DNA from: Amphiscolops sp. MND2022
Taxonomy: Eukaryota
Direction: 5' to 3'
Assembly: GCA_964187785.1 (NCBI GenBank)
Contig: OZ076409.1
Span: forward strand, 29,886,001 to 29,950,000
Length of the DNA: 64,000 nucleotides
Every line of letters begins with the position of its first letter. Position 1 is the first letter of the stretch. Made by a program: the position numbers and the translations under genes. Shown piece after piece: positions 3,038 through 57,192 of this stretch. Below the pieces are notes generated by a model. It was not told the origin of the DNA and did not search any database. It saw nothing but the letters and a program-made list of their open reading frames with translations.

Positions 3038-3072
3038 TTTTTAAACAAACCGAAATTTAATAAACCGGAACT

Positions 3073-20171: not shown

Positions 20172-20593
20172 GTCCTTGAAAAGTATGAATAATCCTCCCT
20201 GCTATGAATCGTTCGGTTGCAAAACGAGTAAACTCAGACTACTCAAATTGGAGCTAACAACTTCCACAGGCTCCTACACGGAATAGATGTCCTCATTGAT
20301 TTGTTCAAGGCGTCCGTTGATTCCATTTCACAATTGACCAAAGTTGGGAAATTTAATTTCTCCGTTCTGGTGTGAAATTATCATAAGTCCTTGAAAAGTA
20401 TGAATAATCCTCCCTGCTATGAATCGTTCTTTTGCAAAACGAGTAAACTCAGACTACTCAAATTGGAGCTAACAACTTCCACAGGCTCCTACACGGAATA
20501 GATGTTCTTCATTGATTTGTTCAAGGCGTCCGTTGATTCCATTTCACAATTGACCAAAGTTGGGAAATTTAATTTCTCCGTTCTTGTGTGAAA
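20172..20593 (+). repeat. Near-identical ~206-bp tandem duplication inside BEL gag
   Basis: 20172-20377 is repeated at 20387-20593, separated by 9-bp filler TTATCATAA. Confidence 0.93.
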
Positions 20594-22502: not shown

Positions 22503-23075
22503 AAACAAGCCGGGACCGGCCCAAGTCGGCGCCATATCCAAGGCTCAAAAATAGCAAAAAGACTTCCAAGTGTCAAGTATTCGTTTACGGCAGTCGAAAA
22601 TCGAAAATTTTTCGAAAAATTTTTTCTTTGAAAAAATTACATACTAAAAAAATTGGACCGAGTGGCGCGCCGGGGCTCGCTAGCGCGAGCCCCTGGCGCG
22701 CTAACGTCTCACAATGCCGAAAAACTGAAAGGGGGGTTACTTTGGGATTTTCCAACATCCATTCTGTCGCAAAACATCAAAAAAATGCAGGGGGGACCCT
22801 TTGAGGAAAAAAACTTCGAAAAAAAATCCGAAAAAAAATGTCTCGCAGTGCCGAAAAAAATTGAAAGGGGGGACTCTTTGGTCTCGCCCGGTATGATATG
22901 TTACGCGGAAAAACAGGTAAAACCATTTTGGTTCAGTTCGCTAGGCCAAATGGTGCTATTTGACACCATAATATTTTGTAGAACTTTCAAGAACTATTTT
23001 GGTCAGTTCGTGTGGATAGAAAAAAAAAGAGTCACTATAATAGTCGCGTTTCACTTCATGAAGCGCCGACTAAAA
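22503..23075 (-). mobile_element. Helentron-associated non-autonomous element (HINE-like), young copy inserted in the BEL RT
   Basis: Near-identical to 48090-48648; subterminal IRs AGTCGGCGC/GCGCCGACT; terminal hairpin; inserted in an A-run (GAGGTC|AAAAAGAAC) with no distinct TSD. Confidence 0.85.
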
Positions 23076-26000: not shown

Positions 26001-27729
26001 ATATGTTGTTATTCTTTGATATGAAGTCATTTCTGCGACGTTCTTCACATTTTTTGCTTTCTTTGCTGTGCCAGCTTTTACCTCCGTGTTGCGAGAAACC
26101 TTCTCATAGAGCCTTTTCATTTATTAGAAGTTGCAAGCCTTGTTAATGACTGGATTTTCTGCCATTTGGTAGGCTGCACATTCCGACGGTCTCCTACTTT
26201 CTCCTCCCGACGGATCAACTTTTGTGTCAAAAGGTTACAGTAATTGAAATTGCTGTTGATTCAGATCCTGACGCGTCTTTCATTGCCTGTAATCAATATT
26301 GGAGTGTTCGTAAAAGCTCTTCCATCGTCAAGGTCTCATTGAGTTGTATGCGTCTTGAAATTTACGTTTTTTCTTCGTACTTCAAACATACCAGAAGTTG
26401 CAATATAAGCAGGTCCGCGTCGAAATCTGCAGTTATTTTGAGAATTTCAGCTTTCCATGATTGAGCAGTTTCTCTGAGTCTAGTTGAAGGGTCAGTTTCG
26501 GTTTTTCTCCTTTAGCGGTGGAGATGAACAATGTTTTTTGTAATTGACCAAGCTTTCTTGTGGCATCAAGTAATGCTTTTGCGTTAATGTGATGGAATGT
26601 CATGTCTTTAGATTTGGGAGCAAATATGTTGTTAGTTTTCATCAGTGCTTCAAGGCCACATCAGCTGGTTATGGAGGTGATAATTTTCAATCTTTCTCCC
26701 GTCCACTTGTTGAATCGGCTGCTAAAGACCGCTTGATTCCTACCCTCGCCAACCCTTTGAAAAAGTGAACCAGGGCGTCTTCTGGATCTTGGGCATTCAA
26801 CAGGATGCGATTCATTGTGATTTTCACTCAACACTTGTTCTGCTAAAATATGGAGACCTTGAAGTGAATAGAAGTTTTATTTATCAACATGAGATGAATG
26901 TAAATTCGACTACAGTTGGTTGAGTTTTTTTACCATCCGATATGTTCTTACATTTTTGGGTTCCTTTTTTGACCATGCAACTGAGAACAGATGAAGTTTC
27001 AACTTGTTTTCTGGATATATGTTCTAGTTCCAACATTATTGAACTTTTTCTGTCTGTTGTGTTGATATCCGTTTTCCACATGTATAATTTTTATTTTCTG
27101 TTGACTTGAATGAAAAGCCTCTTTTTGCTGTATTCTGTTCCCTGATTAACAGTCTTTGTGAAAAAGTGATTTCGTTGATGGTACTGTCTAACCAAGGAGC
27201 ACCCAGGAAGAGAAACATGTTGGATCTGAACGAAGTTTTCAAACGTTGAGGCATTTCTGATCTTTCCAAAACAGATTTTGTTTAACGTACAACAGTTATT
27301 GGTTTGAAAGACATAAAGTAAAATTTCCAGGTGAACGAAACCAATAAACGAACCTAACTTCAGAACTTAGCAGCCGCTCATTTCACTGCAGTCAGGAAAA
27401 AATTTCTCAAGATAACCCTAATACAGCTGTCAGGCCCAAACAAATTTCTGGATACTCACATTTGATGTTAGAATTTTCTGGAAGTAGAACAAGTTTTAAT
27501 CGTTTATGTTCATTCAATGTTTTCTGTCAAGCAATTGTACTTTGACACTAGACCCCAGGTTTCATGGTAGTTCAAATATTTTCTCTGGATCACCTAATGA
27601 ACCACTATGGGTAAAATGTTGCTGTGATTTTTGAAACTTTGCTAGTCTGAAATATTTTTGAACATAAGTTGCATTCTACTGAAATTTACCAAATTGACTT
27701 CCTGAAACACTTCCTGAAAGCAAGGCCAC

Positions 27730-28007
27730 TGTGCTGCTTTAAAGAGTCTTTTATTTTTAGTGGTGGTGGTCTTTTCTCTAGATGTTACAGAGCTAAGTTA
27801 TTAGAAGGATGCTAGCTAGCTGGCTGACTCTACTAAAGCTTGGAGGTCTGAAAAGAGGAATTAAAAGGAAGTCGACTAAACTCTGATCATTAGTTTTCTC
27901 TCTCTGAAGGAGTAGAGTTTTACAGTCATTCAATATTAAATAAATGTACATTCTAGAACATTCTACAAACATCTAAATACTATTGGTTATTAATGTAGGT
28001 CAGTACA
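27730..28007 (-). repeat. 3' LTR of element C
   Basis: Direct repeat of 46344-46621; TG...CA. Confidence 0.96.
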
Positions 28008-28829
28008 TCCATCCCGGTTTTAAATAAAATTAAAATTTTACTTTATATCAAATGAATAAAACAAAGTGAAGTTTTTTGTTTGAATGTTTTTAGCGTTTCA
28101 GCTAGTTCAAATTTTCATTTGATGGATGATTGGCAGAAGTCTTTTTTAAGTTGGTGAGAGTTCGACTCAATGGTAGACATCGAGTTGTCTGTCAAAATAT
28201 GTGACAACTTCATTAGACCTCATATGTGCGACTATAGTTCAAAGGTATCAAAGTGATCTGTTCCACTATGCTTTCGGGCCTATGATTTTGAACTGGTAGC
28301 GGCTCGGTTCTATGCCTTTGTTGAAGCTATTGAATTGGCTTCGCATTTGACAAATCGTGAGCAAACATCATACGAGTTAAAGGTCAAAGAGTCAATGAGA
28401 ATTCTTGTTAAAAAATTTTTGCATCAAGTATGAAAACTGTCTGAAAATATTTCAGGTTGTTTTCAACTTTGGCGGGTTTGTTATATAGAAAATGTTGAAA
28501 TCTTTGCGAAAATGGGCTTCTCATTATTCGAATTGAAATTGAACAGTGTGCTTTATCAATTTTTTAGCTGGTTTTGTTGAAATTTTGAAAAAAATGTTTG
28601 TTAACATTTGATTGAATTCTTTTGTTCTGTGGGATAGAATAGCACCAAAAATAATAAAGAAATATTCTTTAAAAAGTGGGCAAATAAATATCAGTATGGG
28701 ATAAATATCATTGTAAATTAGGGCAAATAAAAACGGGGGGGTTAATTCACTTATTGTATATATAAATACAATAAAGTAGAAATTATCATAATTGAATTTT
28801 GAAAGTTTTTTAAGTTTCATCAAGTACAA

Positions 28830-29561
28830 TGCTTTTTGTCTTGCTTCTGTTCTTTGTTGCTGTTGGTATTATCTGCTTATTGGATCGTCTTGGGTGGTTG
28901 TCGGAATCACTGGGTCGATAGTGGGATCAGCTTGGAAGGATCGATGGGCGGATCGTCTATGGCATTCTTCACTATGGATGTGGAGTCGTCTACTGCAACT
29001 TCTCAGATGATCATTGTTGAGGGGTCCAGATGGTCAATGTTGAGGGGTTCAGACAGCTGATGTTGTGCTGTAACAATCGGAATCTGTTGATGAATGATGG
29101 CTTCAAAATGCAATGTAGGTATAAGTTTTGTATGGAGAATTTTGGTCAAGAAATGTTTCGGGAGGGTCCTCTTGAAGTTCATCATCGGTGGAATCATTAT
29201 CATCCAATGGCCAATAGTGTACGAGATTTTTCTTTTCTAGTGGAGTACGCATTCTATTGGATAGGTTTTTGAGGAAGGGTTTTGGTCGAATAGTGGTATA
29301 ATCCGTCTGGGTTGTAGCATCACACTTTTGAATGAAAGTATCAGGGTGTTTACGCAATTTAAGGTATTGCTCAAAATTTATTTTGTTGATCTGAAAGATT
29401 TGAAACAAATTGAAGAGGAGCATTCGTGTTAGAATGGGGTCTGCTGTTTTCTCTTGTGTAAGCTGGGTATATAATGTTGCAATATGTTTCTTCAGAATAA
29501 GAGATCGGAGTCGAGTGGAAGCAATTGGGAATTCTACTACAGATGTATCATCTGAAGTCAT
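28830..29561 (-). pseudogene. Accessory ORF (3'-most) of element C, unknown product with TQT motif
   Basis: ORF 29103..29561 plus a frameshifted Pro/Asp-rich continuation; same strand as gag-pol-env. Confidence 0.55.
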
Positions 29562-30074
29562 CGTGGTTGAAATGGAGGAATTGAAATGATTAATCTTTGA
29601 AGAATTGTCGTTGTGGAGAGACGTTGAATCGGCGAGTTGAAGGAAGAAGGAAGTTTGACAATTTTCACCTAAAAGAGATTAGTTTGTTCACATTGAAATT
29701 TCCTTTTTAAATAAATTTGTATTGTTGACATTTTTGTGATGTATTTTATTGTATTCTATCTTTTTAATTTTAGGAATTAGGATGGTGTATTTTGGAAATC
29801 TTTCGAAGAATATTTGAACATCTTTCGTTTGAGGTCTCATTTGTTAAATTCGGTTCGTTAAAAGTTGGAAAATTTGAGGAGTTTTGTTGAAAATTTTCAT
29901 GTCCGTTATGAACATTTATGTCATACTGGTATACAAATGTATTCTAATGATTAACATAAACTATGACCATGCATAGCAAGCATAAGTAGGTAAATTCAAG
30001 TTTATTTGACAGGTTGTTAAAGGATTAGGAGATAAATGTTAAAATTCTTAAAGCTTACATCCCATAATTACCAG

Positions 30075-30275
30075 TTAAGATTGTTGGATCTTTTCAAATG
30101 TGTAGTTGATTTCATCTAAGGATGTGCGTATACACGAAGCTGAAGGGCTAACTCTTGTCGTATCAAATGCAAAATTTTGCATTAGATCTCGGGCTTGTTT
30201 AAGTGTATTTACAATATCAGCAATAGTAATGAGTGTATCCTTTTTTGGGTTATGATACCGTTTTAAAATTTCCAT
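30075..30275 (-). CDS. Small accessory ORF (66 aa) of element C
   Basis: Its ATG overlaps the upstream stop (TAATG); intact, helical-looking sequence. Confidence 0.5.
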   Translation of the reverse strand: MEILKRYHNPKKDTLITIADIVNTLKQARDLMQNFAFDTTRVSPSASCIRTSLDEINYTFEKIQQS

Positions 30276-31353
30276 TAATTCTTTATATTTTTGTATTTCT
30301 TCAGTGGGGGGAAAACGTTCTGGTTTAGGAGTGTCAATTGTCTCTTTGGAGGTTCTTGATTTGTCTTTTTGTGTTCTTTGGTATTTCTTTTTGTAAGAAT
30401 TGAGATAAGATGAGAAATAATGAATAATATTTCATTATGGGAGTATCCCGTTTTTGCTATGGCGTAATAATAAGGTTTTTCACAAACTCCAAGAGGTTGG
30501 AAGGCTATGGGATGAATTGGAGGAAGATGGTCTGATATACATTGAGGTATATCTTGTAATAGCGAGTCATCATTCAAGATGAGGTATTCTTGTTTTACTA
30601 TGATTGGTCATTTTGGTTTCTCATTTGGAAGGAAGAGAAAGCTTTGTCATTAATTCTGAGTTTTCCTTTTATTTTGGTATGGTCTATTAGATATTCTGAG
30701 TTGAAAATGAAAGGTGAAGTATATTTCCAGTTGAAGAAGATATAGTTTTCAGGTTCTTTGTATTGGAGGAATTTCTGGTATGTAATATGATGAGCTTTCT
30801 TTATTTGGTTTGGCAAGAAATTAGCATCGTTCTTTTCGGTTCTAAGATCATATGGAGTTGGTCTTAGGAAATTGTATTGAAGTGAGAAAATTTTCACTTT
30901 ATTATTTAACCACCAATCCTATGGGGTGATTAATTTTGATGCAATTGAGGTATGGTAATCATTTTTGAATTCTCTGATGATGAATTTGTATTTCGTTGGC
31001 ATCATATACAAAGAGGTTAGATGGGATTGAAATGTGAATTGGCTTGATGATAAGATGGGAATTAGATCACAATCTCGATCTTCATCTTGTTTTGATGGCT
31101 TTATGAAAAGAGGGCAGGCGCCAGATTCTATAAAAGGTTTATCAGCGGTTATATCTGGATATTTTCTTTTTTGAAATTTTGCGTTTATATGGTCAATTTG
31201 TTCTACTGGAATAGTTCCCATGGGTTCTTGAGTTTGTGGTGAAGATGAATTATTATCTTCGTTAACATTTTGTTGTATAATTATATTCAAAAGGAATGCA
31301 AGCAATTCGGAAGAACTAGAGTTAACTACATCAATTTCAGGCAAGGATTCCAT
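30275..31353 (-). pseudogene. Accessory ORF (~360 aa reconstructed) of element C
   Basis: ORFs 30919..31353 and 30598..30897 share a frame across one TAG; one frameshift joins them to 30275..30577. Confidence 0.6.
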
Positions 31354-31783
31354 TATTTTAACTTGCTTGAATTTGTAGCGCTGAAATAATAATTTTGTTT
31401 ACCAAATAATAAAAATAAGTTAGAACAAATTGGAACGTTAATTTTTAAGGTATTTGTGTTCATTAGTTAAGAGTTTTTTTGAAAATAAAAGTTTAAATTG
31501 TACTTACAATATTGGAATGTCAGTTGTGGCTCAGAAAATCAACAATCACAGTGGCATCTATTCCCGGAATAGAAACTTCTGTGATTTCTAGGATTCGTGG
31601 TTTACAGGGAGTGAAGTATTTTTCCATGTGGGGTATGATGTTCCAAGTGAAGTCGTTTGGTTGGGTTGAGGTAGGCAGCTTGTCCAAGTGAGAATTTTTG
31701 GGTAGAATGAAAGTTGAATTGTGGAGTTATTTGTTGTTGAATTTTTGAAATTTGCGTTTACTTTATTTTATTTGGTTATTACA

Positions 31784-32259
31784 TTTTAGTCGGCGCTTTT
31801 CTTAAGAAAAGAACCCGACTATTAGTCACTCGTTTTTTTTTATTTAAGTCAGACTCGAAGCGACGAACGTTAAAATTAACGTTCAACTACTAAAAACAGT
31901 ACTAAACTACTGGAACGGTAAAGGCAAACGGGGAGCGCATTCATTTACTTTTTAAACGTTACCTACAAGCCCGGACGGGACTAAAGGGTCCCCCTTTTCG
32001 AGTTTTTTTGGCACTGTGAGACTTTTTTTCGAAATTTTTTTAATGTCCCCAAAGAGTCCCCCCTTTGAGTTTTTTGTTATTTTGCTACAGAATGCGTGTT
32101 TATAAATCAAAAAGGGTCCCCCTTTTACATTTTTCGGCACTGTGCGACATTTTCCGAAAAGAATTTTTTTTCGAAAATTTCAAGTTTTTTTCCAAAAAAA
32201 TGTTTTGCGATTTTTGAGCCTTGGATACAGCGCCGACTTGAGACGTTCCCGTCTTGTTT
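31784..32259 (+). mobile_element. Helentron-associated non-autonomous element (HINE-like) nested in element C
   Basis: 5' TTTTAGTCGGCGC with partial IR CCCGACT; 3' GCGCCGACT, then hairpin AGACG-TTCC-CGTCT and TGTTT. Confidence 0.85.
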
Positions 32260-32262
32260 CTG

Positions 32263-34802
32263 TTAGGAGGAGTTATATTTTATGAAGACTTTAGCGGGGC
32301 TTTCCGGTAAAGCTATTACATTTTGTACTATGGGGTCATAGTCCTGAGAAATTTGAGGTGAACTAATATCGTTAATATTCCTTGGGCGTGTCTTTTTTGG
32401 TGATTGAAGTGTCGAATTCTTGCTTGTATATTTAGGAGCTAAACAAGGGGAGTCACTATTGGAGTATCTTCTCATTTTCTTTTGTGTTCCTTTGTCGGAC
32501 AACAGGATATTATCAGTTTCACTTGTGGTAATTTTGTGTTTAGTATATATCCGTTTGCGTTTTCCAGTATTATTTAAATCAGTAAACATTTCCGATGTAA
32601 CTGTATTTAAAAATCCATGGGTTATTGAATTCAAAATGTAAAAGTTGCTTTGTTGATTATATTTTATAGTAATTGGTCAGTAGAATTTAAGTAGGAACGT
32701 TAAAACTTCTCTAATTAAAAAAAAGGTGGAGAAATAAATTCCACATTGTGTTGAAACATAACATGGATACCCAAAAAAATTTATGAAAGCTTGACTAAAC
32801 CAGTCAGGGTCGAAAAGTGGTAAAAAGTTTAACAGGTGATCATGTTCTCCAATCCCTAAATGATTATAAGGATTTGATCCTGTGTGGGAGTGTTGTTCAT
32901 TATGTACTGTAATGATATCATAACTTAATGATTTTCCGAGTAATTGGAGAGTTGTATCTGAGTGTTTTGCGAATAATACTCTATTCCAGAATTGATCTAA
33001 TTCTGCATTCGAGTATATACCGGCATCTTGAGCGGTAAATGTATTGGGTGTTATTGTTGTCTTAATTTGTGTAGGTTTGAACATTTGTGGTGCTTCTCTT
33101 TTGAGCGGGTCTGGTGTTAACACATAAAAATCTCCGTCATCTGTATCTGGATCTAATTCAAAAATGTTTTGCGGGTTATTTCCACTTTCTATTGGTGTTA
33201 CATACTTAAACGTTTGTCTTGTTATGGGCTCTACATACATTATAGTTTCTCTATAGTGTATGGGGATTCTATCAAAGCATTTATCTGCTTTGTATAGAAG
33301 TGATATAAAATGAGGGCAATCATACAGCCATGCTGTAGATCCTTCAACATAGAGGAAGTTACTGCGATTTCCAGTTAAATGGAAACCGGCTAATTTAGGG
33401 TTCTTAACTGACATAGCTAAGATTGTTAACAATTGTGTTCTTTCTAATTCACATACTGTGTGAAGAGTATTTAATTCTTGTACTGTCATAGATTTAAATA
33501 CATGATTTATTGTGAAGTCAATTTTTGTATTGATATGAGCATCATAGTCTAGAGTGGCGAAATTGTTTGATACATTTAGTGCGGGGAATTTATATTTCTG
33601 ATTAGAGGTATCAAATTGTATTCTTCCACTAATGTTTTGATCTATTATTGAGTGTGGTCTCGGTTGTCCATTATTCATATCAAAACCAAATAGGTATGTA
33701 ACAAAGATGTCATCATTTTGTGTTGAATATAATGGTTCTGGTTTTTCACAAAAGGTTTGTGCAATTGGGTATATCTCAAATCGAGAAGAATTTGGGTTGT
33801 CTACGGTTGATTGTGGTGTTTTGACATTGGAATTTTTTGTTCCTTGGATTCCTTCGCTTTGAAGGTTTTGTGTAATATTTGAGGGTTCGATAAAGTTTTC
33901 AGTTTCTATCCAATATCGGTCATTCTTCCAATTAATTCTTGTAATCGAAAAATGAGACAAAATTTTTCATCAAATCATATTATTGTGTATGGGGTTCTTG
34001 TTGTTGGTTTACAAAATCCGTCTGAGTGGTAACACGGTAGCATGTATCCATCGTGAATCATTTGGTTGTTTTTATCAACATATGTTATTTCAGCATTATT
34101 TATTCTGAGTTTCCAACTTTTTCGAGTGATTAAATGTTCTCTGTCACTTCTACTTCTTGAATAAGTATTTTGTCTGAAGTTAACTATCCAGTCTAGTGTG
34201 GATAATGTTCATCATACACGAACGTTCCGATATGCCAAGCATTTAGTTTTTTTACTCTGAATGGTTGTTGAACTTGTTCAATTTTTTTGGTAATCACTAT
34301 CATCAAAAAATGAGAAGGAACTTTGTATATTGTAATTGTTCAATTCGTTACTACCGGTCGCGTTTAAATATCTTATCATATTTTTGCATTCAAAAGGGTC
34401 AAGTATTTTTAGAATTTCTAATGTATTTTGTCCCCATTGTAAACGATCATATCGTCTACTAGATGAAAAAGTTTGTGAACACCAAAGTTTTTCAGTTTTT
34501 ATATATGCTTCACATTTGAAGGCTTTGATTTTTTTGCATTTGCTCTGACGTATACTGTTGCTTGGGTCTTTGTGTTGTATATCTGAGGGTGCTCGTTTAC
34601 ATGGTTCAACATTTAGTAAGCTAAATTGTCTTAAGTTATTTTGTTTTGCACAATCATAAAGGGATACCATAAGGTTCAAGATATTTGGATCTTGTTCTGA
34701 AATTTGATTTTCTGAATTTGTTGTATCAACTTTAGGAACTGATGTAGAGTTAACAATGTGTATTATATATGCAATATTTGCATTGAAAAATATGCTTTTC
34801 GT
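32263..34802 (-). pseudogene. env: env: class III-like (herpes gB / chuvirus G-type) fusion glycoprotein
   Basis: Mutated start (ACG) and leader; LYDC near the N-terminus; CELER..L...A....NP..AG..LTG....F....G...WLYDC; KCFDRIPIHY....MYVEPITR; C-terminal TM (GIYFSTFFLIREVLTFLL) and tail. Broken by frameshifts. Confidence 0.75.
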
Positions 34803-34804
34803 GG

Positions 34805-36240
34805 TTAAAATGTAGTTCTATAGTAAAGTCCTGAGAAGGGATTAAAGAAGTTTATATGACCTGTTCTAATTTCTGGTAATTCAGCGTCACAAAGATAAGA
34901 TATTGATGTGACTAAAAACGGTGAGGGAGTTGTTTTATGTGCTACTCTTGTTGAAAGAGAAAATGGATGGGGTTTTAAGGAGTTGATTGTAACTTCAACT
35001 TCGAAGTTCAATACTAATTGATCTTCTTGTAATAATCGTAGTTCTCTTTGTTTTCTTGGGTTTGAAAGAGAACTATTGTTTATAAATCTATCTGAGAGTA
35101 CAGTGTATCGAGGATCTTCGTTAAGACTACGAATAATCTTTGAGTTAACACCAATAGGATATTCGTGTGGCATTGGTGTAGGAGGTCTCGAATATTCTTC
35201 TAGAAAATATTCGGGTTTTGTATGGATGAATCAGATAGTTTTGAACTAGGTGAATAAACTCGTGAAACGTTTGCTGCACTATCTGATATAGTTTGAGGAT
35301 CTTCTGAAAGGAGGGATGCTGTTTCAAATTCTGATGTGACTTGAAATGGTAATGATAGAGAAGATGGTATAGTGGGGTGGGATGAGGAAAGAGAAGAAGT
35401 TTCTGATCTGGGTTGTGCTTGTTGTCTAACTAGTCTTTAATTTGTACTGGAACTAGTTAAAGGTTGTAATTGTTTAGAATTTCTTCGTGATTGGGATCTG
35501 AGGTTATAACTATGTCGCGGTACTCTGGTACTAGCAGTTGAATCAGAGTCTTTATCTTTGTAATATAGGTCTGTTAAGGAAGAAGTAGTGTTTGATTGTA
35601 GGCGGTCTAATTCTAGTCTTGGGTGTACTTGAGAAAATGTAAATGAACTTAGTTCAGATGGTGAACTAACTATATGTTCTGGTATAGTTTTTATTGGGGA
35701 TTGACTTGTTGATGGTAGAGCAAGGTTCTTTGGTAATGTTGGTATAGGAGTTTTTCTAGGTAATTTGGTTGCAGTCGGTATTCTATGTGGACAAGAATGA
35801 ACGTATTGAAGAACTGAGCTAGGATCAGGGATATGAGGAGTACGAGTGGTAGGAATTGGTGGAAGAGGGGGTCTGTTTAGGATACTTGAAGTATCTTGTA
35901 CATTGTTTTGGGTTGTAAGTGATTCATCACAAGAATCACTTGTAGTTGAACTTATTTCTAAAATGGTAGGTTTTGTTGAGTGTATTGTGGTTGAGTTGTT
36001 ATAATATTTTGTGATTGAATTGTTATTACTGGTGTTTGAGTTTGAAGTATGGGTGTATTATTGGGCGTTACTGTTGCTCTATCAGGAGAATATGGAGCAG
36101 ATGGGCTATGATTTGAGGATGAGGAATCCAGTATGTCTGTATCTGAATTTAGGTATGCGGTATATTCAGGTAGTGTTTGGAATGAATGGGTTGAACTAGA
36201 TGATGAGTTGTTTCTGTTTGATGGAGGTGAGTGTCTATGT
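34805..36240 (-). pseudogene. Ser/Thr/Pro-rich extra ORF (or Pol extension) between integrase and env
   Basis: Low-complexity coding-like sequence with a YNLRS motif, ending in the ordered-looking ORF 34805..35173, which stops 2 nt before the env start. Confidence 0.5.
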
Positions 36241-36399
36241 CTATCAGTCTTGAAGTCTTTTTAATTTTAAATTTCAGTTTATGTTTCAGTTTCAATTTCT
36301 TTTACTTTTCTTTTTATAGTATCTTTATTCAGATTACTATCTATAACTATTCAGCTCAAACTTTTTTTCAGCAGGGTTTTTGAGAAAACGAAATTATAT

Positions 36400-39300
36400 C
36401 CTTTTCACCGAGGAAATGTCGATAGTCTTTTCGTGGTTGTGGGCGGAAATTGTATTTGTTATAGATGTGTCTTCGGGGATTATTATAGTGGTCGTAGTCA
36501 TGAATATTAGATTGGTTTTCTGGGTTGGTATTATTGGTATTTGTTAATTTTGTTGGTACGGAAATAGGGAGTATTGGTTGAATGATTCTGGTTGAAAATC
36601 AATTGTAAATGGTATATCCGTTTCTTTACTGGAATTTGTAAATGTGTGGTCTTCGTCTTCAACTGATTGTTCTTCATCGGAAAAAGAATCAGAAGGCTCT
36701 ATTGAGTCATTTATATTCGAGTCATTATCAATATTATCATCTTTATTTGAATATGGATTATATTGTTGTATGAAAGGAAAATTGATGGGTTCCTGTGGAA
36801 ATACGGAACTAAATGGTTTCTGTGAATATGAGAAGTGTAACCATCTTGATTAACAATTTCAGATGTAATATCAGAAAATTTATTAATGATTTTAAATGGT
36901 CCAATTCTGAGAGGTTTCAATTTATCTGAAAAATGAACATGGAGAAAATTCCTTTTTAGTACAAATGTACCAATGTCTAAGGGTCTTGGATTATTGTATG
37001 TTTTATTGAAATAAGCAAATGAAATAATTTTTTTTGTGTTTTCGTAGACTGTGTGATATATTTGTATCATAGCAGTGCAATTTCAGTAGCCAAAATCCCT
37101 TGTGGAATTGGTTTCGATAAGATTTTATGGAAGACAGGGTTTAAATTTGATTTGTCATAATGTGTATGAAGTGGTAAGTCCTGACAGTATTGAGAAATGC
37201 AGTTTCTATAAGTATCTTTTTGAAGATTGAGTTCAACGTTTATTGGGATTCTTGGTATAGTATGAAATAATACTTCGTATGGTGAAAGTTTTATTTCAGG
37301 AAGTGGTTGTGAATTATGTGCATAAGCGTACATATGGACTTGGGTAGACCAGTTTTCTGGTGTGTTATGTAGAAAAAGTCTGAGATGGGTTACAAGGTCT
37401 TTGTTTTGATTCTCTACTAAACCTTTTGTCCATGGTGCGTAAGGAGTTCTTGGTGAATGCCTGATTCCCATTGTGGTACAAAGGTTTGTAAGTTCAGAAT
37501 TAAAGTATTCTGAACCACGGTCTGTAACAGAAAATATGGGAGGTCCAAATTTAGTAATCCAATGAGGTAGTAGGGAATTGACAGCATTTTGAGCATTGTT
37601 TTGTTTAACAGGTACTGTTACTACAAAGTGGCTGAAAGCGTCAACTGTCACATGAATGTATGAGTTTTGTTTTGATGGTGGATTTTTAGGTCCTTTTGTA
37701 TCTATTTATATTCGGTAATTGAAATTTGAAGCATTTTCTGAAAATGTTTGTTTTGTTGCAGTTTGAATTTTTCGATTATTGTGTTTGTTTTGTTGACATT
37801 CAATACAATCGTGAATGAATATTGACATCCATTTATATAAATAAGGTGGAAAATAAAATAGAATAAAAGTTTTGATGGATATTTTAACTCCAGAGTGTCC
37901 ACGTGCATGAAATTTATTGAAAGCTGCATGAAAGAGTTTAAATGGTAAACATACTTTGTCTTCTTGATTTGGGTTTGAATCATGAACGTTAGGGTAATCT
38001 ATATGAATGATTTTTGTATCATGGTTGATGTACAGTTGATTGAAGAAATTGTAGTAAACCGATGTGAGGAATTACTTGCTATTGTTGCTTTTGTTGGATC
38101 TATTTTTAAAGGTCTTTCATTAGTCTTTAATCAATGGTAAACCTTTTATAATACAAGGTCTTGTTTTTGTTGAGATTCTATAGTTTCAATTGTTATTTGA
38201 GTGTCTTCTGGTAGGAAGAAATAATGAAAATATTTTTTGTACTTGAAGAAAGATGGATCAAAAAATGGAACTTGTTGATTACAGTAATCAGATTCAGTGG
38301 GGTACTGTATTGCTAGTGTTTGTTCTTTTGATGTGTTTGTGTTTTGATTCTTCGTATTTTGTGATTGATTTGGCCCGTCTTCATCACGAAGAATATCTGT
38401 GTCATTGAGGAAAGTTGATTGTTGTACGAGTGATTTTACTCGAGTCTTTGTAGGTCTAATGTATTTGGATTCAAGTGGAACAATGGATTGAAAAGAAAAT
38501 GAATCTAATGGTTTCATATGAATGTCTTCTCCTTTGTTGTTTATGCGAATGGAAAATTGGTCTTCGCCATAGTCAGCGAGAATTGGGTGGCAATCATTTT
38601 TTTGATGATGTTTGATTTCTTCATGTTTTACTAAAAAGTGTACGGGTTTGAGTTGGTACACTTTTCATGATAGAGAAATCTTTTTGAGGTGGCAATTGTT
38701 TGTGTCGTAATCGATGTATTTGAAGTTGGTCTTTTGTGAAAGTTCTAGAAAGCATGTCTGCTACAGTTAAATTTTTTCCAGGAGTATGAATCATTTTTAG
38801 TTTAGAAAATTTTGTTAGTTGCATTTGTGCTTTATGAAATCTTGGGCTAAGGTTTCCTTTTTTTGCAAAACAGTGTAATAAAGGTTTGTGGTCCGTGAAG
38901 ATGTACATCGGATGAGGGGATCCAATCATGAGAAATTTATATATTTGTAATGCATAAACTATTGCGAGGAGTTCTCTGTCTAGTGTTGAAAGTTTTTGTT
39001 CTTGTGTATTAAGGATTTGTCAATTGTAAGAAAAAACTCTCATTTTATTTTTTTCATTCATTTGGAATAGGACTGCGCCTATACCAACTAAGGAAGCATC
39101 AACTGTTATGAAAAATGGATGTTTTGTATTGGGTATGGTTAATTCAGTTTCTGCTGTCAGTGTGTTATTAACGTCGTGAAATATTCTTTCTATTTCGGGT
39201 GTCCATTGAAATTTAACATCATCAAATAACAAGGTATATAATGGTTTGAGATTTATATGTAGTTTTTCAATGAATTTTGAATAAAAGTTTACACTGCCTA

Positions 39301-41280
39301 AAAATTGCATAACATTTTTCTTTTCTTTTGGTGATGGGATTCTTTTGATGGCTTCATTTTTATTGGGAATGGTTTAATTGTGTTGTTCCCTATTTCATGT
39401 CCAAGGAATTGTACTTTGAGTAACATATAAAAAGATTTTTCAGGTGCAGGTTTGAGATTTTTTTGTTGCTATTTTATGGAGTTTTCTGATAAGTTCAATT
39501 ATTTCTTGTTTTTCGTCTGCTAATTGTAATATAACATCAATATATACTAATGCAGAACGTTTGTCTATAAGTGGTCGAAAGAAAGTTGACATTTGTTTTG
39601 TAAAAAAAAGTAGGAGTCTTTTTATTCCATAGAATCCACGGATAAAGGTATATAAATTATCTCCGGATGAAAATCCTGTAAGTTTGATTGTTTCTTCGTC
39701 TAATGGAGTATGAGCGTATGCAAACAACAAATCAATAGTTGATTTGTATTTTTTGTTAGCTCTAGCTAATTGAGGGGCTAAAGGTTCTTGAAGGGCTGAA
39801 GGTTCAATGGGCCAAGATTCAAGTTCTTGATTAGTGTTTGAGTTTAAATGTCTAGCATCTAAAACAATTTTTATTGCGGCTCCTTTTGGGATAATGAATA
39901 AAAGAATTTAAAATGTTGTTCCAATAGTGTGTTTTTTATCTGGCGTGGAGCCAATTTGTTTTATTATGTTATATCTTTCAAGTTCTACTAAGAGTTTGTT
40001 AGTCTATCTCTGTAATGAATTGGTACTTTAGAGGGTCTTTGTGTTTGAAGATAACAATTTACTTTAATTCTAATTCTGAATGGAGTAGAAATTTTTCCTA
40101 CGTCATTTCGACGTTCAGCGTTGAATTGATTAATAATAAGGATATTGCAGAGGCTTACATATTCTGTATCAGTTAAATCTGAATATTCAAAGTTGAACTA
40201 TTTTCTGAATTGTTGACTTTCTGCAGTATATGGTAGTGAAGGAAAATCTTTTCTAATTTTATCTGAGGGTCGAAGATTTCCTGTGACAGAAGGTATGGGT
40301 AATTGAAGTGTTTTATGATTTATTTCTATTTTGTTGATTTCTAATAAGGACTGTGGGATTACTCGAGTACATAAATTCATATCGGTAATATCATTTTGTC
40401 TAATTGGAATGGTAGTATCAGGATGCTAGGCATGTATTACTGAATGAATAAACGAGTTTATATCATGAACGCTATAATGAGGAGGTGTTGTTTGAGTAAT
40501 AGTGATTTCTATATATCCAATAATTCCTTTTGGTAGTGTAGCTGGATGAGATGTAAAATTTTGAATTACTGTTTAGCAGGACTCTTTGCTTTTGTCGTTG
40601 ACTGTCATGTCTAAGAAGTGAAAAATATCTTTAAATTTTTGTAGGAAATATGTATATGGAATTGATGGACAAAATTTGGTATTATCTTCCAGTTCAAAGT
40701 GCAAGTTAGGATAATTTTTGATTGGGAAATGTATAGTCTTTCCTGATCTTGGTTTGAAGTGATTTGGCTCTTTACATTTAATAGTATAAATGTATGAGAT
40801 ATATGGGTAATCCTTTTCTGTAAATGTTGAGAAATGTGTTTTTGTAGGAAGTTTTGGATGTTGTTCTTTATTAGTCATGATATTTTGTTGAAAGTCTATA
40901 TATTGAATATTTTTCTTGAAAAAAGGTGTTCCAAGAATAATATATTTAATAGTTGCTACTGCAAATTCGATATTGAAAGATCGATTTTGATGATTTACTT
41001 CAGTAAAACATGTCATTGAAATAAAGTGTATTATTGGTACTTCAGTTTGATTGGCAACTGTGAGAGTTTTAGCTCTTTTGTTTTCAATATTTTTGGAACA
41101 TTGTGATTTAATTGTTTTGCAATTACATGAAGTGTCGGTAAGTTCAAATTTGATATGGAAGCTCCAGTATCTAAGAGGAATAGGATTTCTAATTTTGAAG
41201 GTAATATGTTGTCTTTTCGATCAAAAGCATGTACATATAGTGGATATAAACCAACTATAAGGAGTAATTGTTTTTGCAAT
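36400..41280 (-). pseudogene. pol: pol (protease, RT, RNase H, integrase) of element C
   Basis: FLLDTGASIS; RT FAYAHTPL/ALVYIDVIL; FLGSVNFY; ITVDASLVGIGAVL; IFTDHKPL...ADMLSR; integrase VDAFSHF...VTDRGSEY...GLVENQN; GPF module. Confidence 0.93.
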
Positions 41281-41299
41281 TTCAGTTATTAGGCATATA

Positions 41300-44200
41300 T
41301 GAATTTCAAATTTAGTACTATCGCATGTATGAATTTCAAATTTAGTAGTATCTTTGTCGTTGGTAGATTTAACATCTACTTGTTTTTTTTATATTTTGTT
41401 GTCTGTTTCGTGATGATCGTCTAGATCATGATCTGTAATCTCTTGGTCTAGATGGAGATCTATACGGGTAAGTGTATCGTCTAAAAGAGTTTCCTTGTGA
41501 TTGAGAACGAGATCTATATCTTGATCGTGAATTATATCTATAATTGGAGTTGTTTCTCTATGGTGATCTAAATGGAGATCTGGATGGATTTCTTCTTTGA
41601 TAATGATTGTCATATCGGGATCTAGATGGGTATGGACTTGGAGATCTATTGTAATATCTTTGTCGAGAATTAGATCGATAATTATTTTGTGAATAATCTC
41701 TACTGTTGCTTCGGTATCTGTCGTTATTTCTACAACGGTCATTGTAGTAGGGGTAGTTATTTTGATTATATCTGTTACGGTCGTTATCTCTAGAAAAATA
41801 ACCATTTTTATTTTTATTTCGATTTTCTTGTGAATTACTAGGTTTACTACGGAAGTATTGTACAAAGGATTGTTGAGGAGTTCTTGATCTCTGATTTTTA
41901 TATCTTTGATATTCTTAATCACGTTGTTTTTGATAACAATTTGAAATACTATGATTGTTTTTGTGACAATAAGAACATTTTTTTGTAGGCTGGTTTGCTT
42001 TTGTTATTTGGGTCTCCAAATTAATTGAGTAACCATTGTATGGTCATATTCTGATTCTTTGTTGTTAGTATCATCTTCAATTGATACTTCGTTTAATTCT
42101 AAAGCTAGATCATTTGTTCTTATTTTTCCTTTAGCGATATCGTCAGATCAACATGTCGAACAACTGTGTGAAATGGTATTGATGGTTCAAGTAATGTTGG
42201 TCTGCTGTGAGCAAAATCTTTTATTTTTTAGGTAATCTTTTTGTGCAATTATCATTGTTTTTGAGATTTATGGTAGATGCACTTTCACTGCACCATCCCT
42301 TTTTAACTAATTGTTGTACTCTAAGAGCAAAATGGCGTACTGTTTCATTATCTTTTTTCATGAGTGACATAGCTTCTACTAGTGCGTAATAAGCTGTTTT
42401 TTGAGATGAAAATTGTTTTTTAAATAGTTGTACAAATGAAGTCCATTGTTGTTTATATGATATATGGAGATTAGTGTACCAATCAAGAGCTGTTCCAATT
42501 AAAGAACATTGTATATATGCCATGCGTCTATTATGCCATGACCTACATTTTATAGGATTATATTGAGCTTCTTCACCTATAGCAAAGGTTAGTCTTGCTT
42601 CAACTTGTTGTAAAGATTCTTCTGGGGTGTATGAAAAGTCTAAATCGTCAAAAGGTTTCATAGGTTCTGGTATTGAAGCTGAAGTATTTATGAATGTATT
42701 TTGTTGTATTGGCATATACTGAGGTGGAGGAACTACAGGTTGTATCTTGTTTACGGGTGGTGAAATTGTAGTAGGGTTGGAAGTTTTATGTTGATTCATT
42801 TGATATAGAGAGTCAGTAGATATATGCGAAAGTGGAGGATTTTGGGATCTTCTTTGAGAGGGTTGTAAAATGTTTGAATAAGATGTTCTTTGGTTTTGTA
42901 AAGGAAAACTACTTTGTGAGGAAATAGTTTGTGATAAATGTGCGTATGGGTGTTGTGTCCTTGGATTGTTATTAGGTTGAGAAATATTTTGAGTATTGTT
43001 TGTTTGAATATTTGTATTAGATGGTGGAACAAAGGAATTATTAAATGGATCATAGTGTTGACTAGAAAATTGTTGGTTACTTTTACGATTAATTTCTGAT
43101 TGAATTGTTTTATTCGACTGCTGAAAAGCAGAACAAATTGGTGGAGGATCATATATAAATCGAGTTGTATTTCGTGTATTATTAGAAATAGACCTTGTAG
43201 GTGCTAAAACAAAAACAAAAGTATCACGGGTTGAAGTTATATTTTGAGTTTCATCTTGTACTATATCATCTGGGTGAGTTGGAAGAGTAAAGGTGTTATT
43301 ACGATGTGGAGATGTATCTAAGTATGATTGCGGTTCATGTGTATTTTGTCTTGGGCTAACAACCCTAGTTGGAATTCTAACAAATTGAGAGATTGCTGAT
43401 GTCTCAGTTTGTGATGCATTTTGTGCTGAAGTTGTAGATTCTGAAGTGGTATACTCACTTGCATTGTTTTCATTTATGTGGAGTAAAATATCTTCGTTAC
43501 GAATTTCAATTTGATTTTCAAATATGTATTCTTCATTATTATTGTCGTCTTCTTCATTGTTATTGTCATTGTTGGTAAATAGGTTTTGTTGTTTTGAATA
43601 TTCTGTTCATACCGATACGGTCTATCATCATCTTGAAAATTGTTTTCTTTAATTAAACGAGGATCAAAAGATATGAGATCCATGGTTTGTTGTGTTACTT
43701 TATCTGGTTTGAAAAAGTAAGGATGTTCATTTTGTTCGTTCATGATGAGTGGTAAACATTCATCAGCTGTAAAATGATTGTGAAATGTTGCGAAAGCAGG
43801 TTGATCTTGTTCTGACCATAATAGTTGATAATTGAATCTGAAATAATTTCTAAGAAAGAAGGATATCACTTTAGTTTGAGGTATTGTTTGTTCGTCTAAT
43901 GTTATATCTTTGAAAGAATGATACAGGAAATGTTGTATTCGTAGTATATCTGCTTGTGACCAATGATGATGAATTTTTTGAGTTGTAATTATTCTTTCTA
44001 TGTCTTCTACTTCGAAATTGTGTATTCATATCGTTCAAGTTCTTCAAGTGCATTTGGGCTAAATTTTGGGTTTTCAAGTGCTAAGTTGTATTCTTTCATT
44101 GGGGACTATTGGTATTATTGTTCTTCTATATGTTTGAAAAGAGGAGGTTTCTTGTTGCGGAAAAGTAATTTGGAAAGATTGATATTCCGTAGAGGCAGTT

Positions 44201-44600
44201 GTAGATCTATGTCTAATATAGAAGAGGTATGTATCCAGATGTTCTCTAATAAGAGGAATTGTTTCAAGGCTGTAGGGTTCATTTTCAATTGAAAGTGGTT
44301 GAGTATAATTGTAAACAATGTTATGTAAAAATGGTTTTTATTTCAGTTTTTACTATTTTTGCATTTTTAATGTAAGGTATCTCAAAAGGTGAAGGGAAGA
44401 TACTGAGGAGTTCATGTTAGAGATTACTTCTTATTGTTGTAAGTATCTTTTCCAACAGGATGCAAAATAAGAATAAAACAGAAAATGTATAAGTGGTGAT
44501 AAGTATTATTGTGGTAACTTTTTCCCACAATATAGATTGTCTAGATTCAATGTTGAGAGTTTGTTATAATTATAACATTAGTTGCAACCGTTGTGACAAT
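41300..44600 (-). pseudogene. gag: gag of element C with long N-terminal extension and RS-rich C-terminus
   Basis: Capsid-like PFD...YTPE..LQQVEARL...L.GTALDWY...W..FVQLFKKQF...ETVRHFALRV; CCHC knuckle CSYCHKNNHSISNC ~41930-41980; RS/Y/N-rich tail. The 5' boundary is approximate. Confidence 0.8.
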
Positions 44601-46343
44601 GATTGTTTCTATTGTGTGTATGGTAGTGGTCAAAAAGATTAATAAGTATAATCTATTTTGTTAATATGTATGAAGTTAAAATTTTGTTAGAAGTTTTAAG
44701 TTGGTGATCTTGGGTAATTTCGTTGTTGGTCTAAAAGATAGGAAAAGAATTGTGCGTATTGTTGACTTAGTCTTTCAAAGTCTGCAGCTGAAGGGTTAAA
44801 GATTGTACTGAGTTGATGTACAACTAAATGCGTAGGAACAGTTAGTGAAGGAGTAGAGAAAGGTGAATTGTCGGAAGTTTGGTTATGTGTGTTTGAGTTA
44901 ATATTTTTTAAAATATGAAATAAATATGAAATTGTCTGGAGTTTTGGTATTGTTAGGGATAGAGAAGAAAGAAGCGGATGCAATAGAATCTGTATTCAAC
45001 CTCAAAAGATTGCTAACAGAATCTGAGTTGTGATTTAATTCTGGAATAAATTAAAGTGTCTGACATAAGGCCACTGACACGTCCAGTAAGAGTTGTATTT
45101 TAGAGCTGGACTTCAATTGAAGTGTCTAACATAAGGTTACTGACACGTCCAGAAAAGCTGAGAGAATTTTAATTTTAAGTGGGTTGTGTGTTTTAAGACT
45201 GACGGAGCGGAACTCTGACCAATCAACGTCCACTATCCAAAGTCGGATCAATACTGATCAAGATCAAAGTTTGATCTTTTGTGTGTTTTACTTTTTACTT
45301 TTACTTCCTGAGAATTTCGAAGATTCGAACGTAGTTCGGTGTCCTCAAGATTCTCCTTGATGACGTTTAAACTTAACTAAGGTGTTTAGTCAGCTTAGAA
45401 TCAGACTACGCAAGTTAAAATAAGGTAGGGTCTGATTGTTTAAGTCTTACGGGAGGGAATAGGAATTGTGGGTGCCTGAAAGTATAAAACTACCTTTACA
45501 GTGTGTTTTTTATTTTTATCTCCTATTTTAGATTTTAGGGCAAAAGAGTTGTGTTAAAATTTTATGTGTGGCTTTGTTAAAATTAAATGTTTTGTGAGGA
45601 TGGGTTAAAATGATTGACTAGATTGGGAATTTTGTCGACAGAAGATTGATAACGAGAGTTTTGGTTGCTTTTTATGGATTTCTGATTCTAATTCAGAGGG
45701 TCTTTTTTTGAAGTTTTTTATTAGAAAATGGATCCAAAACGAAAGAATAGAAAGTCAGGTTTTCTGCCAACACGAAGTTGATCTTGAAACGTATATGCTT
45801 ATAGGTGAGATGAGTCTAGTATGCACTCAGTCAACTATTACACCAGGAGTCCACCTGACGTTCAAGATAGCAGGATTGAAGAATTTATTGCCGTGTCAAA
45901 GGTGTTAGAAAACCTTGATAAACCGGACAAAACTGTTTCAACAAGCTTTCGGATAACTGTGATAAATCAGTATGGAGAACAGAACTTTGTCACTGTGGAT
46001 AAATCAGTCTGAAAATGTACTGTGTCAACGTGTAAGAAAACGTGATAAACCGGCAAAGCAAGAAGAACAAAAGAAGAACCGTGTCAACGTTTATAGAAAA
46101 ACGTGACAAACCGGAATTGGAGGAAATTTTGTTATTTTTCAGATGAAGAAATTTTTTGTCTAACAATGATGTATTTATTGAAGAAATTCAAAAAGTCACA
46201 GACTAGATTTTCTAGGAAATCTAGAACAATTTCACTGCAATCCAAAAGAATTTCAAAGACAAGTAGTGGTAGGTGTTGTATTGATGAGAAAAGAGAAAGC
46301 ATTCAGCTGAGAAAAGAAAGAATTTTTGCAAGTCGCACCAAAT

Positions 46344-46621
46344 TGTGCTGCTTTAAAGAGTCTTTTATTTTTAGTGGTGGTGGTCTTTTCTTCAGAAGTT
46401 ACAGAGCTAAGTTATTAGAAGGATGCTAGCTAGATGGCTGACTCTTATAAAACTTGGAAGTCTGAAAAGAGAAATAAAAAGGAAGTCGACTAAACTCTGA
46501 TTATTAGTTTTCTCTCTCTGAAGGAGTAGAGTTTTACAGTCATTCAATATTAAATAAATGTACATTCTAGAACATTCTATAAACATTTAAATACTTTCGG
46601 TTATTAATGTAGGTCAGTAAA
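46344..46621 (-). repeat. 5' LTR of element C
   Basis: Direct repeat of 27730-28007; PBS-like TGGTGCGAC at 46340-46332. Confidence 0.96.
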
Positions 46622-46899
46622 CCACCAAAACACAACAAGTAATACTAGCAGAAAAATTACTGATGAGGAAATATCCCCTCAAAGTTGATCGCTACCGTTC
46701 AGTTGTTTTCACAGATGTAAGTGCTGGTAAACAAAACAGTGTAAAACTACTGCGACTCGACAGGATAGTATACGTAGGGGTAATTTTTTGCCAAACTTTG
46801 TTTTTCGGATATTCCAATGTCCAGAATCTATCAATGCTCACGTGCTAATGATTTGTTCAATTTGATTGTTTAATTTCTATCAAGTGCCGTGGAAAAACA

Positions 46900-48089: not shown

Positions 48090-48648
48090 AACAAGCCGGG
48101 ACCGGCCCAAGTCGGCGCCATATCCAAGGCTCAAAAATAGCAAAAAGACTTCCAAGTGTCAAGTATTCTTTTACAGAAGTCGAAAATCGAAAATTTTTCG
48201 AAAAATTTTTTTTTGAAAAAATTACATACTAAAAAAATTGGACCGAGTGGCGCGCCGGGGCTCGCTAGCGCGAGCCCCTGGCGCGCTAACGTCTCACAAT
48301 GCCGAAAAACTGAAAGGAGGAACCCTTTGGGATTTTCAAACATCCATTCTGTCGCAAAACATCAAAAAAATGCAGGAAAAAAGATTTCGAAAAAAAAATT
48401 CCGAAAAAAAAATGTCTCGCAGTGCCGAAAAAAATTAAAAGGGGGCCTCTTTGGTCTCTCCCGGTATGGTATGTTACGCGGAAAAACAGGTAAAACCATT
48501 TTGGTCCAGTTCGCTAGGCCAAATGGTGCAATTTGACACCATAATATTTTGTAGAACTTTTAAGAACTATTTTGGTCAGTTCGTGTGGATAGAAAAAAAA
48601 GAGTCACTATAATAGTCGCGTTTCACTTCATGAAGCGCCGACTAAAAA
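48090..48648 (-). mobile_element. Helentron-associated non-autonomous element (HINE-like), young copy
   Basis: Near-identical to 22503-23075, with the same termini and internal GC hairpin. Confidence 0.85.

Positions 48649-57159: not shown

Positions 57160-57192
<33 letters not shown>

Follow-up and report, generated by a model that had tools for sequence, protein, structure and literature searches.

The window analysed here, a 64-kb stretch of contig OZ076409.1 from Amphiscolops sp. MND2022, contains an LTR element 18,892 bp long, which shrinks to about 18.4 kb when a nested HINE-like insert of 475 bp is discounted. As the initial annotation had proposed for an element of this size, it is enclosed by matched 278-bp LTRs, which differ at 16 positions (94.2% identity), and by CCAC at both ends; the 5′ LTR starts with TT and not TG. 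Ty3/gypsy LTRs are recognized by TG...CA ends, a 4-6 bp TSD and a PBS, and both a 4-bp TSD and a TGG-type PBS were found. The 3′ end of the PBS matched no row of the errantivirus element table in the portion of PMC13524379 used here. The internal region of about 17.9 kb holds six supported genes in the order gag - pol - A - env - B - C (Table 1), and consensus-like splice sites are present in the element. Nearly all genes of this copy are interrupted by stops and frameshifts, ORF C being the sole unbroken one among the five compared with long natural proteins. Rfam gave no matches within 27500-46800, and no tRNA genes were detected in the 64-kb window.

Table 1. Features of the LTR element, by position in the window
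Feature	Position	Strand	Remarks
TSD CCAC, 5′ side of element	46622..46625	.	
5′ LTR	46344..46621	-	278 bp; TT...CA; AATAAA at position 252
PBS-like TGGTGCG...	46329..46340	-	3 nt after LTR
Leader	44416..46343	-	1.93 kb; four ATGs; 66-bp-spaced duplication at 45049-45155
Leader open frame	44696..44983	-	95 codons; no ATG in studied copy
Extended gag	41558..44415	-	Broken; 3′ end approximate
pol	36544..41557	-	Broken; ends approximate
Accessory ORF A, S/T/P-rich	34805..36260	-	Broken in studied copy
env, chuvirus/gB-type fusion protein (PF24664)	32263..34817	-	Broken in studied copy
Nested HINE-like non-autonomous repeat	31785..32259	-	475 bp; ends approximate
Accessory ORF B	30075..31353	-	430-435 aa in relatives; broken in studied copy
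Accessory ORF C	29103..29561	-	152 aa; unbroken in studied copy
98-aa hydrophobic ORF	28524..28820	-	Self-match only (1/121 matches)
3′ LTR	27730..28007	-	278 bp; TG...CA; weak purine-rich tract just before
TSD CCAC, 3′ side of element	27726..27729	.	

The long leader, gag, pol and env content and extended gag of the initial annotation were all confirmed, the domains by Pfam matches to gag, RT, RNase H, integrase and env pieces, and the extension by natural gag copies, which begin at 44415 and are at least 937 aa long. The upstream ORF reported in the leader is indeed an open frame, but it lacks the ATG start; gene calls for this frame in relatives are mostly of 68 aa and start at 44902, and no Pfam family scored above cut-off. 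Gag consists of a conserved N-terminal region of about 290 aa, an N/Q/S/T-rich linker, capsid PF03732, a CCHC knuckle and an RS-rich tail, and its profile gave a single match against PDB sequences, at E 3.6. Pol comprises protease (DTG), RT, gypsy-type RNase H, a bridge region and integrase (H2C2, core and SH3/GPY-F-like parts); Pfam families occurred in the order PF00078, PF17919, PF17917, PF17921 and PF00665, giving the PR-RT-RH-IN arrangement with a single gypsy-type RNase H. The RNase H directly after RT retains the DAS, RE, TDH and ADxLSR motifs. No second RNase H was found by Pfam, bridge included; the bridge piece 38146-38664, the region in which HSV/gB-type errantiviruses have a 'mini' domain, had no Pfam match. 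When the broken pieces were compared with solved structures, Ty3 was the best match for the RT thumb/connection (E 9e-13, versus 6e-7 for MLV), whereas HTLV and foamy virus were best for the integrase core (E 3e-13 to 3e-11, versus 7e-5 for Ty3-G) and foamy RT was the weak best match of the RT palm piece (E 0.02); the placement of pol by best matches was thus mixed.

ORF A, proposed earlier as an extra ST/P-rich ORF, is found in other copies as proteins of about 490 aa and up to 504 aa, with the C-terminal 135 aa better conserved. It represented 35 of the 120 matches listed, 23 of which terminate at one shared codon ahead of env, and one cluster had 488 members; known relatives are limited to the range of 62-90% identity. 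Their N-termini scatter around 36260, an internal Met was absent in 9 of 12 proteins, and the ORF shares about 12 nt at its stop with the beginning of the env frame. A PSAPY motif was present in 17 of the 67 proteins examined. ORF A had no Pfam family above cut-off, its profile had no PDB sequence match, and its C-terminus had no Atlas match.

The env gene matched PF24664 above cut-off (E 1.6e-25) and is represented in relatives by whole proteins of 857-858 aa; 572 homologs were detected, the largest cluster holding 1,585 members (unnamed ENA entries). It contains 16 Cys residues and a modest top hydrophobic stretch at about 704-722 (KD 1.59). The location after pol, a predicted class III ectodomain, the cysteines and a putative TM anchor agree with an env of the HSV/gB-type errantiviruses. 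A furin-type R-x-K/R-R site was absent, and the env profile had no PDB sequence match. The frame at 32263-32676 is the env tail and not a separate gene. In relatives this tail is long and cytoplasmic, with a PPxY motif in 38 of the 45 long tails, spread over three tiers in which the tails are 24-37% identical; the tail of the studied copy has no PPxY. A 1,323-aa env cluster member was considered as an A-env fusion and rejected, as it is a tandem duplication of env. Queries with a single env and with an env alignment retrieved no related DNA locus from metagenome, viral or prokaryote collections.

Instead of the four or more same-strand ORFs counted at first after env, two genes, B and C, are supported; the count had been raised by fragments of ORF B, the env tail and the 98-aa frame, which appears unsupported as a gene. 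The frames at 30919-31353, 30598-30918, 30275-30607 and 30075-30431 are fragments of one 430-aa ORF B, a putatively soluble protein in which a basic patch precedes a conserved core and C-terminal helices are predicted. We identified 448 homologs (one cluster with 705 members); 28 of the 134 examined were at least 419 aa long and 26 finish at the same residue, and ORF B made up 83 of 121 matches among 50%-identity representatives. A 447-aa relative is open at 33% identity over 390 columns, with 260 differences, and under neutrality 5-6% of amino-acid-changing base changes are expected to be stops. The basic patch was found in 7 of 16 proteins examined, 5 of them in diverged tiers. ORF B had no Atlas match and no detectable relatedness to gag or ORF C, and its AlphaFold model (mean pLDDT 38) was moderately confident at residues ~355-429 alone.

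ORF C accounted for 32 of the 121 matches, and relatives at 56-62% identity share its start region and stop. It is predicted to form a helical hairpin (AlphaFold mean pLDDT 58) and has a D-x-x-TQT-D/E motif and an acidic tail; TQT[DEN] occurred in 23 of the 32 proteins. For B and C alike, no Pfam family scored above cut-off, profiles had no PDB sequence match, and fold searches either came back empty or retrieved helices of a generic kind (best Z 4.3; 0 matches at E 0.001). Such blank fold searches do not demonstrate a new fold.

Other members of the repeat family to which the nested insert belongs lie at 22.5k, 48.1k and 15.2-15.9k of the window. The insert has subterminal inverted repeats (GTCGGCGC/GCGCCGAC) and a 3′ hairpin (z -3.3); HINEs are described, in the part of PMC4067079 used, as having subterminal inverted repeats, a 3′ stem-loop, a T-rich target and no TSD.

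Evidence on the family comes from proteins of other copies (unnamed ENA entries) in a database of open frames only, which favours surviving copies, and linkage was read from fusion proteins of rearranged copies. Deletions have joined IN to A (P0361, P0382), A to env (P0360) and env to B (P0495, P0506), and a rearranged protein combines C and env (P0531). P0506 joins a diverged env tier to a diverged ORF B tier, and env, B and C show parallel identity tiers. At the level of protein sequences, A, B and C recur in other copies and are linked there, and B and C are deeply conserved. Because they are found in proteins of many other copies, the extra segments are a property of the family. A BLOSUM conservativeness test barely separated ORF B (0.27-0.34, neutral 0.36) or the env control (0.36-0.38, neutral 0.32) from neutrality. 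Linkage of env and ORF B through length-matched contigs (14, from 152 env and 145 ORF B contigs) was indistinguishable from chance and given no weight.

Taken together, the locus very probably holds a decayed copy of a high-copy, env-bearing Ty3/gypsy family with a native length of about 18 kb and three selected accessory genes, in the layout gag-pol-A-env-B-C. With similar confidence, the family can be placed among the errantiviruses in the broad sense, with a gB/chuvirus-type env. By analogy with the known biology of LTR elements, it would have spread via reverse transcription and integration, and Env would have given particles entry to other cells. Since neither has a consistent 5′ AUG, A and Env might be made from spliced or non-canonical messages, and B and C from subgenomic RNAs with their own starts, a weaker proposal that we see as evenly balanced.

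The PSAP, PPxY, basic patch and TQT motifs are suggestive of roles in budding, in the nucleus and in LC8 binding; chance occurrence of short motifs was estimated at 0.015-0.09 each. As the likeliest, though tentative, functions, ORF A (PSAP) and the Env tail (PPxY) might recruit ESCRT/NEDD4 for budding. It is conceivable, if somewhat doubtful, that ORF B is a nuclear regulator of element transcription or RNA export, and ORF C is a possible but uncertain candidate for a small adaptor binding the dynein light chain LC8. According to the sections of PMC6607443 used, Ala is unfavourable at position -3 of the LC8 motif and many peptides with TQT fail to bind; both points count against the adaptor reading of ORF C.

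A serious competitor, to which we assign somewhat less than an even chance, is that selection has kept B and C as cargo that does not regulate expression of the element itself (host-silencing antagonists or host-derived modules, like rotifer ORF3s), the likeness to complex retroviruses being positional only. LTR elements have often picked up ORFs, either between pol and env or 3′ of env (parts of PMC6431247 and PMC5408684), and B and C have no sequence tie to Tat, Rev or Tas. However, no cellular homolog emerged: among 1.84 billion representatives, 120 of the 121 matches of a mixed profile of reduced sensitivity map to the element and the remaining one is its own ORF, and the basic patch of ORF B is retained in diverged tiers. 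We give limited credence to the proposal that a genuine complex-retrovirus programme evolved independently in an invertebrate lineage of Metaviridae. The element would then be an ~18-kb gB-type enveloped virus, with ORF B as a Tas/Rev-like nuclear regulator, ORF A as an adaptor for late-domain budding and ORF C as a trafficking adaptor bound to LC8, positioned as in foamy-like fish retroviruses.

It is rather unlikely that ORF A continues pol at its C-terminus, by read-through or frameshifting, or extends env at its N-terminus, in which case long polyproteins would be made, as in Burro, and the accessory genes would number two. The lack of a consistent AUG, the overlap with the env frame and the in-frame joining of IN to ORF A in two deletion derivatives are in line with this idea. 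Yet none of the 120 proteins listed out of 144 matches runs from the end of IN across the 36260-36540 gap and on into ORF A (the search covered proteins of 362-2000 aa, so that a full pol-A protein above 2000 aa would fall outside it), and the scattered N-termini and the common stop before env also argue against it.

Far less plausible is a lineage nearer to Retroviridae (Odin/loki/foamy-like) than to ordinary Metaviridae, with an inherited FLERV-like layout. The best matches of the integrase core and RT palm piece lean this way. However, the RT thumb/connection is nearest to Ty3, gag carries PF03732 and a CCHC knuckle, and the Env fusion protein is PF24664. Retroviridae pol is characterized by a degenerate tether and a newly acquired RNase H (PMC12440569, in part), whereas here gypsy-type RNase H motifs are intact after RT and Pfam found no second RNase H in the bridge; the element is most probably gypsy-type and not a retrovirus. 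Finally, the possibility raised at the outset, that unrelated nested insertions found in this copy alone have enlarged an ordinary gypsy/errantivirus of 8-10 kb, is highly improbable and largely refuted: one genuine nested repeat, the lack of outside support for the 98-aa 3′ ORF and the fact that this is the only full-length copy seen speak for it, but tens to hundreds of other proteins contain A, B, C or the gag extension, A, B and C are fused to IN or env elsewhere, and the tiers of env, B and C are parallel.

Retroviruses of the complex type, with several accessory genes whose products act as regulators and come from spliced or internal-promoter RNAs, are considered a vertebrate innovation, and invertebrate errantiviruses are described as three-gene elements. 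Our preferred reading, a decayed copy of an env-bearing Ty3/gypsy family with three accessory genes, can be compared with the HSV/gB-type 'ancient errantiviruses' (Chary & Hayashi 2026, PMC13524379, in part), which are multicopy gag-pol-env elements with a class III env, often with no furin site. The Ty3/gypsy gene order, chuvirus/gB-like class III env and multicopy state are shared, whereas the studied element is 18.4 kb long and has three accessory ORFs. In the sections of PMC13524379 used, candidate regions >10 kb and LTR pairs >14 kb apart were excluded, and the first pass limited pol-env gaps to 500-1,000 nt; the main text, as far as available, does not contain the word 'accessory'. This points to a survey blind spot, the size of metazoan errantivirus elements having been capped at 10-14 kb.

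The element is no size record among LTR retrotransposons, since Burro (>30 kb) and Ogre (16-25 kb) are longer or comparable (PMC6431247, in part, also for what follows). These too are very large Ty3/gypsy elements with extra ORFs, and Burro, present in thousands of copies, has homology to env. However, the recognizable domains and env of Burro lie in one polyprotein of ~4,900 aa, whereas env and the orphan ORFs are separate here, and Ogre owes its size mostly to its LTRs (internal region 11-13 kb), in contrast to 278-bp LTRs and an interior of ~17.9 kb.

Small extra non-env ORFs are reportedly carried by Drosophila MDG1-group elements. Rotifer ORF3s are likewise non-env extra ORFs in invertebrate gypsy elements (PMC5408684, in part). 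Such ORFs replace env or are small or enzymatic, whereas the studied element has three ORFs of 150-490 aa beside a full env, none with a Pfam match. A precedent for regulation is the C. elegans Cer1 CERV, an invertebrate LTR retrotransposon in which a Rev-like nuclear regulator is made from spliced RNA (PMC10309623, in part); the candidates here are stand-alone ORFs 3′ of env, likened to it by description only. Of the three orphan proteins, two are conserved across subfamilies; all three are candidates for novel proteins that regulate the expression of retroelements, budding or host defence.

The closest layout is that of fish FLERVs (PMC5512871, in part): AliFLERV (17,490 nt; gag, pol, acc3, env, acc1, acc2) has a gene order and count identical to those of the studied element, and AciFLERV (17,409 nt; 8 ORFs) has a 465-aa acc3 between pol and env. 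One feature of complex retroviruses (Retroviridae) was counted as present in the studied element on the basis of ORFs A, B and C. A size and gene count comparable to those of complex vertebrate retroviruses, as claimed in the initial annotation, therefore stood (18.4 kb and six genes versus 17.4-17.5 kb and 6-8 ORFs), while the larger gene count did not, having been inflated by fragments of broken genes. FLERVs belong to Retroviridae, whereas gag, RNase H and the PF24664 env are of other types here (the first two gypsy-type), and the acc genes are likened by position only. The FLERV-like layout is most likely convergent, suggesting a separate origin of the gag-pol-acc-env-acc-acc arrangement in Ty3/gypsy, where it is combined with a fusogen of another class.

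We identified the element as, very probably, a broken copy of an abundant Ty3/gypsy-type family of ~18 kb that carries three accessory genes besides an env of chuvirus/gB type; judging from the family's proteins, the large size is native to it. The LTRs and CCAC flanks described in the initial annotation were located: the two LTRs (46344-46621 and 27730-28007, minus strand; 278 bp each) differ at 16 positions, of which 9 are transitions, and CCAC stands at both element ends. A TGG-type primer site was present 3 nt past the 5′ LTR. A nested 475-bp repeat, without which the element is ~18.4 kb, directly followed the env stop; its inverted subterminal ends and 3′ hairpin resemble traits described for HINEs (PMC4067079), and it had relatives elsewhere in the window (22503-23076, 48090-48648 and 15200-15860). 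GC skew was 0.16-0.45 in all 1-kb bins between 28001 and 46000 and mostly below 0.15 outside, a strong strand bias that fits a single long transcription unit. In the 1.1-kb 3′ region (29102-28008), tandem repeats of 23 bp (29004-29065) occur together with a frame that is open in part, and a few relatives' proteins extended into it.

Pfam searches with 35 stop-to-stop pieces detected a Monjiviricetes fusion glycoprotein (E 1.8e-19) as well as gag, RT, RNase H and integrase. The element passed Ty3/gypsy structural tests, and when the integrase core, a broken piece, was compared with solved structures, HTLV and foamy virus scored above Ty3. It failed the retroviral RNase H test and was therefore kept out of Retroviridae. 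Given its anatomy and established LTR-element biology, it would replicate by reverse transcription and integration.

Family evidence consisted of proteins called from other copies (all listed matches of the env, A and B searches were ENA entries); cluster sizes include fragments and could draw on more than one haplotype or assembly. A mixed profile searched against 1.84 billion representatives yielded 121 matches: 83 to B, 32 to C and 4 to the leader ORF; of the other two, one was an env-B fusion and one a 98-aa ORF (28524-28820) matching itself. Five proteins from other copies (P0155, P0408, P0108, P0591 and P0026) came from contigs 17.8-19.3 kb long, close to the length of one element; these contigs might represent circular or collapsed assemblies of the element.

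If the additional segments were unrelated insertions unique to the window copy, they should not be joined to core genes elsewhere. Rearranged copies, however, encoded natural fusion proteins (IN-A, A-env, env-B twice and C-env), indirectly suggesting that A, B and C belong to the family. One fusion united a diverged env type with a diverged B type, implying that B diverged along with env.

Accessory ORFs of the element and other features of the window
Feature	Position	Strand	Observation
ORF A	36260-34805	-	35 of 120 listed matches; proteins up to 504 aa
ORF B	31353-30075	-	448 matches; 28 of 134 examined at least 419 aa
ORF C	29561-29103	-	unbroken in window copy
Second, unrelated decayed gypsy-type pol	59394-63549	-	RT and RNase H Pfam matches; runs off window end
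Decayed LTR element	~2843-8549		LTR-like repeats 2843-3020 and 8375-8549, ~5.5 kb apart; integrase zinc-finger match 6264-6905
Gag-like ORF	400-906		near the decayed LTR element, opposite strand
GC-richer region	54661-58503	+	broken ORFs; C2H2-like motif (55872-56594); no Pfam match; possibly DNA-transposon remnant
Inverted repeat	16241-16730		236 bp, near-perfect (97%), 18-nt loop
Degenerate repeats; tandem duplication	13616-14147, 20165-20593		degenerate repeats with period ~167 bp; tandem duplication of 215 bp

The env search gave 572 matches; identity among the 120 listed was mostly 80-90% or 60-70%, with a few at 50-60%. Whole env proteins (857-858 aa) spanned about 34770-32266, which identifies the 32263-32676 ORF as the tail of env. 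The count of four or more ORFs past env was thus too high, the more so as the 98-aa ORF matched only itself in the profile search, where any close relatives may be concealed within the cluster it represents; as a gene, it is unsupported, yet short of disproved. By its Pfam match, env appears to be a class III-type fusogen, with 16 cysteines and a tail of 130-200 aa; no furin-like site was found in it. Late domains recruit host factors: PSAP binds TSG101 and PPxY binds NEDD4. PPxY was kept in 38 of 45 long-tailed env relatives, whose tails were 24-37% identical across three tiers, and was lost from the window copy.

ORF A is the additional ST/P-rich ORF already noticed from the sequence. Its stop was common to 23 of the 35 listed relatives; identity was 76-89% over the last 135 aa where fully covered, and mostly 62-86% in the S/T/P-rich part. 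Of 67 proteins examined, 17 carried PSAPY; many that lacked it started downstream of the motif. Because A mostly lacked an internal Met (absent from 9 of 12 proteins), the first Met of env was downstream of its hydrophobic N-terminus, and an acceptor-like site (one of 8 from a simple scan) was present at the A/env junction (34830), spliced expression of A and env is plausible. Gene-caller starts may be non-AUG codons.

The extended gag was likewise borne out: many relatives started at 44415, the longest among the matches listed reaching at least 937 aa. Its conserved N-terminal region of 290 aa is followed by a low-complexity linker, the capsid, a CCHC knuckle and an RS-rich tail. A strong donor-like site (AA|GTGAGT, 43458), just past the conserved region, could give spliced gag-fusion products. 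The proposed 95-aa leader ORF stood as a frame (44696-44983), but it had no ATG in the window copy and relatives' calls were mostly 68 aa; on small counts, its differences looked neutral-like, so it is a putative ORF at most.

ORF B is soluble; its N-terminus is variable, its core conserved, and helices are predicted at the C-terminal end. Identity went down to 33% across 390 columns in a 447-aa open protein. A basic patch was present in 7 of 16 proteins examined. B is a tentative candidate nuclear regulator. ORF C shared its start region and stop with relatives down to 56% identity, and a predicted helical hairpin was followed by D-x-x-TQT-D/E in 23 of 32 proteins. This motif fits 5 of the 6 positions specified for the LC8 motif (PMC3078936); however, LC8 disfavours alanine at -3 and leaves many peptides with TQT unbound (PMC6607443), and the motif was conserved no better than other blocks of the protein.

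The element would work like a gB-type errantivirus. In total length, Burro exceeds it and Ogre is similar (PMC6431247). Cer1 CERV shows that an invertebrate LTR element can encode a Rev-like protein (PMC10309623). With its limits of 10 kb and 14 kb, a metazoan errantivirus survey would probably have missed this family (PMC13524379). No description of an env-bearing gypsy element with this layout was found in the literature searched, which covered few subscription journals and not Repbase. That the element is a convergent, true complex retrovirus within Metaviridae seems rather unlikely. The comparison with complex retroviruses made in the initial annotation is partly supported: its gene count was too high, and the layout is the same as in AliFLERV (17,490 nt; PMC5512871).
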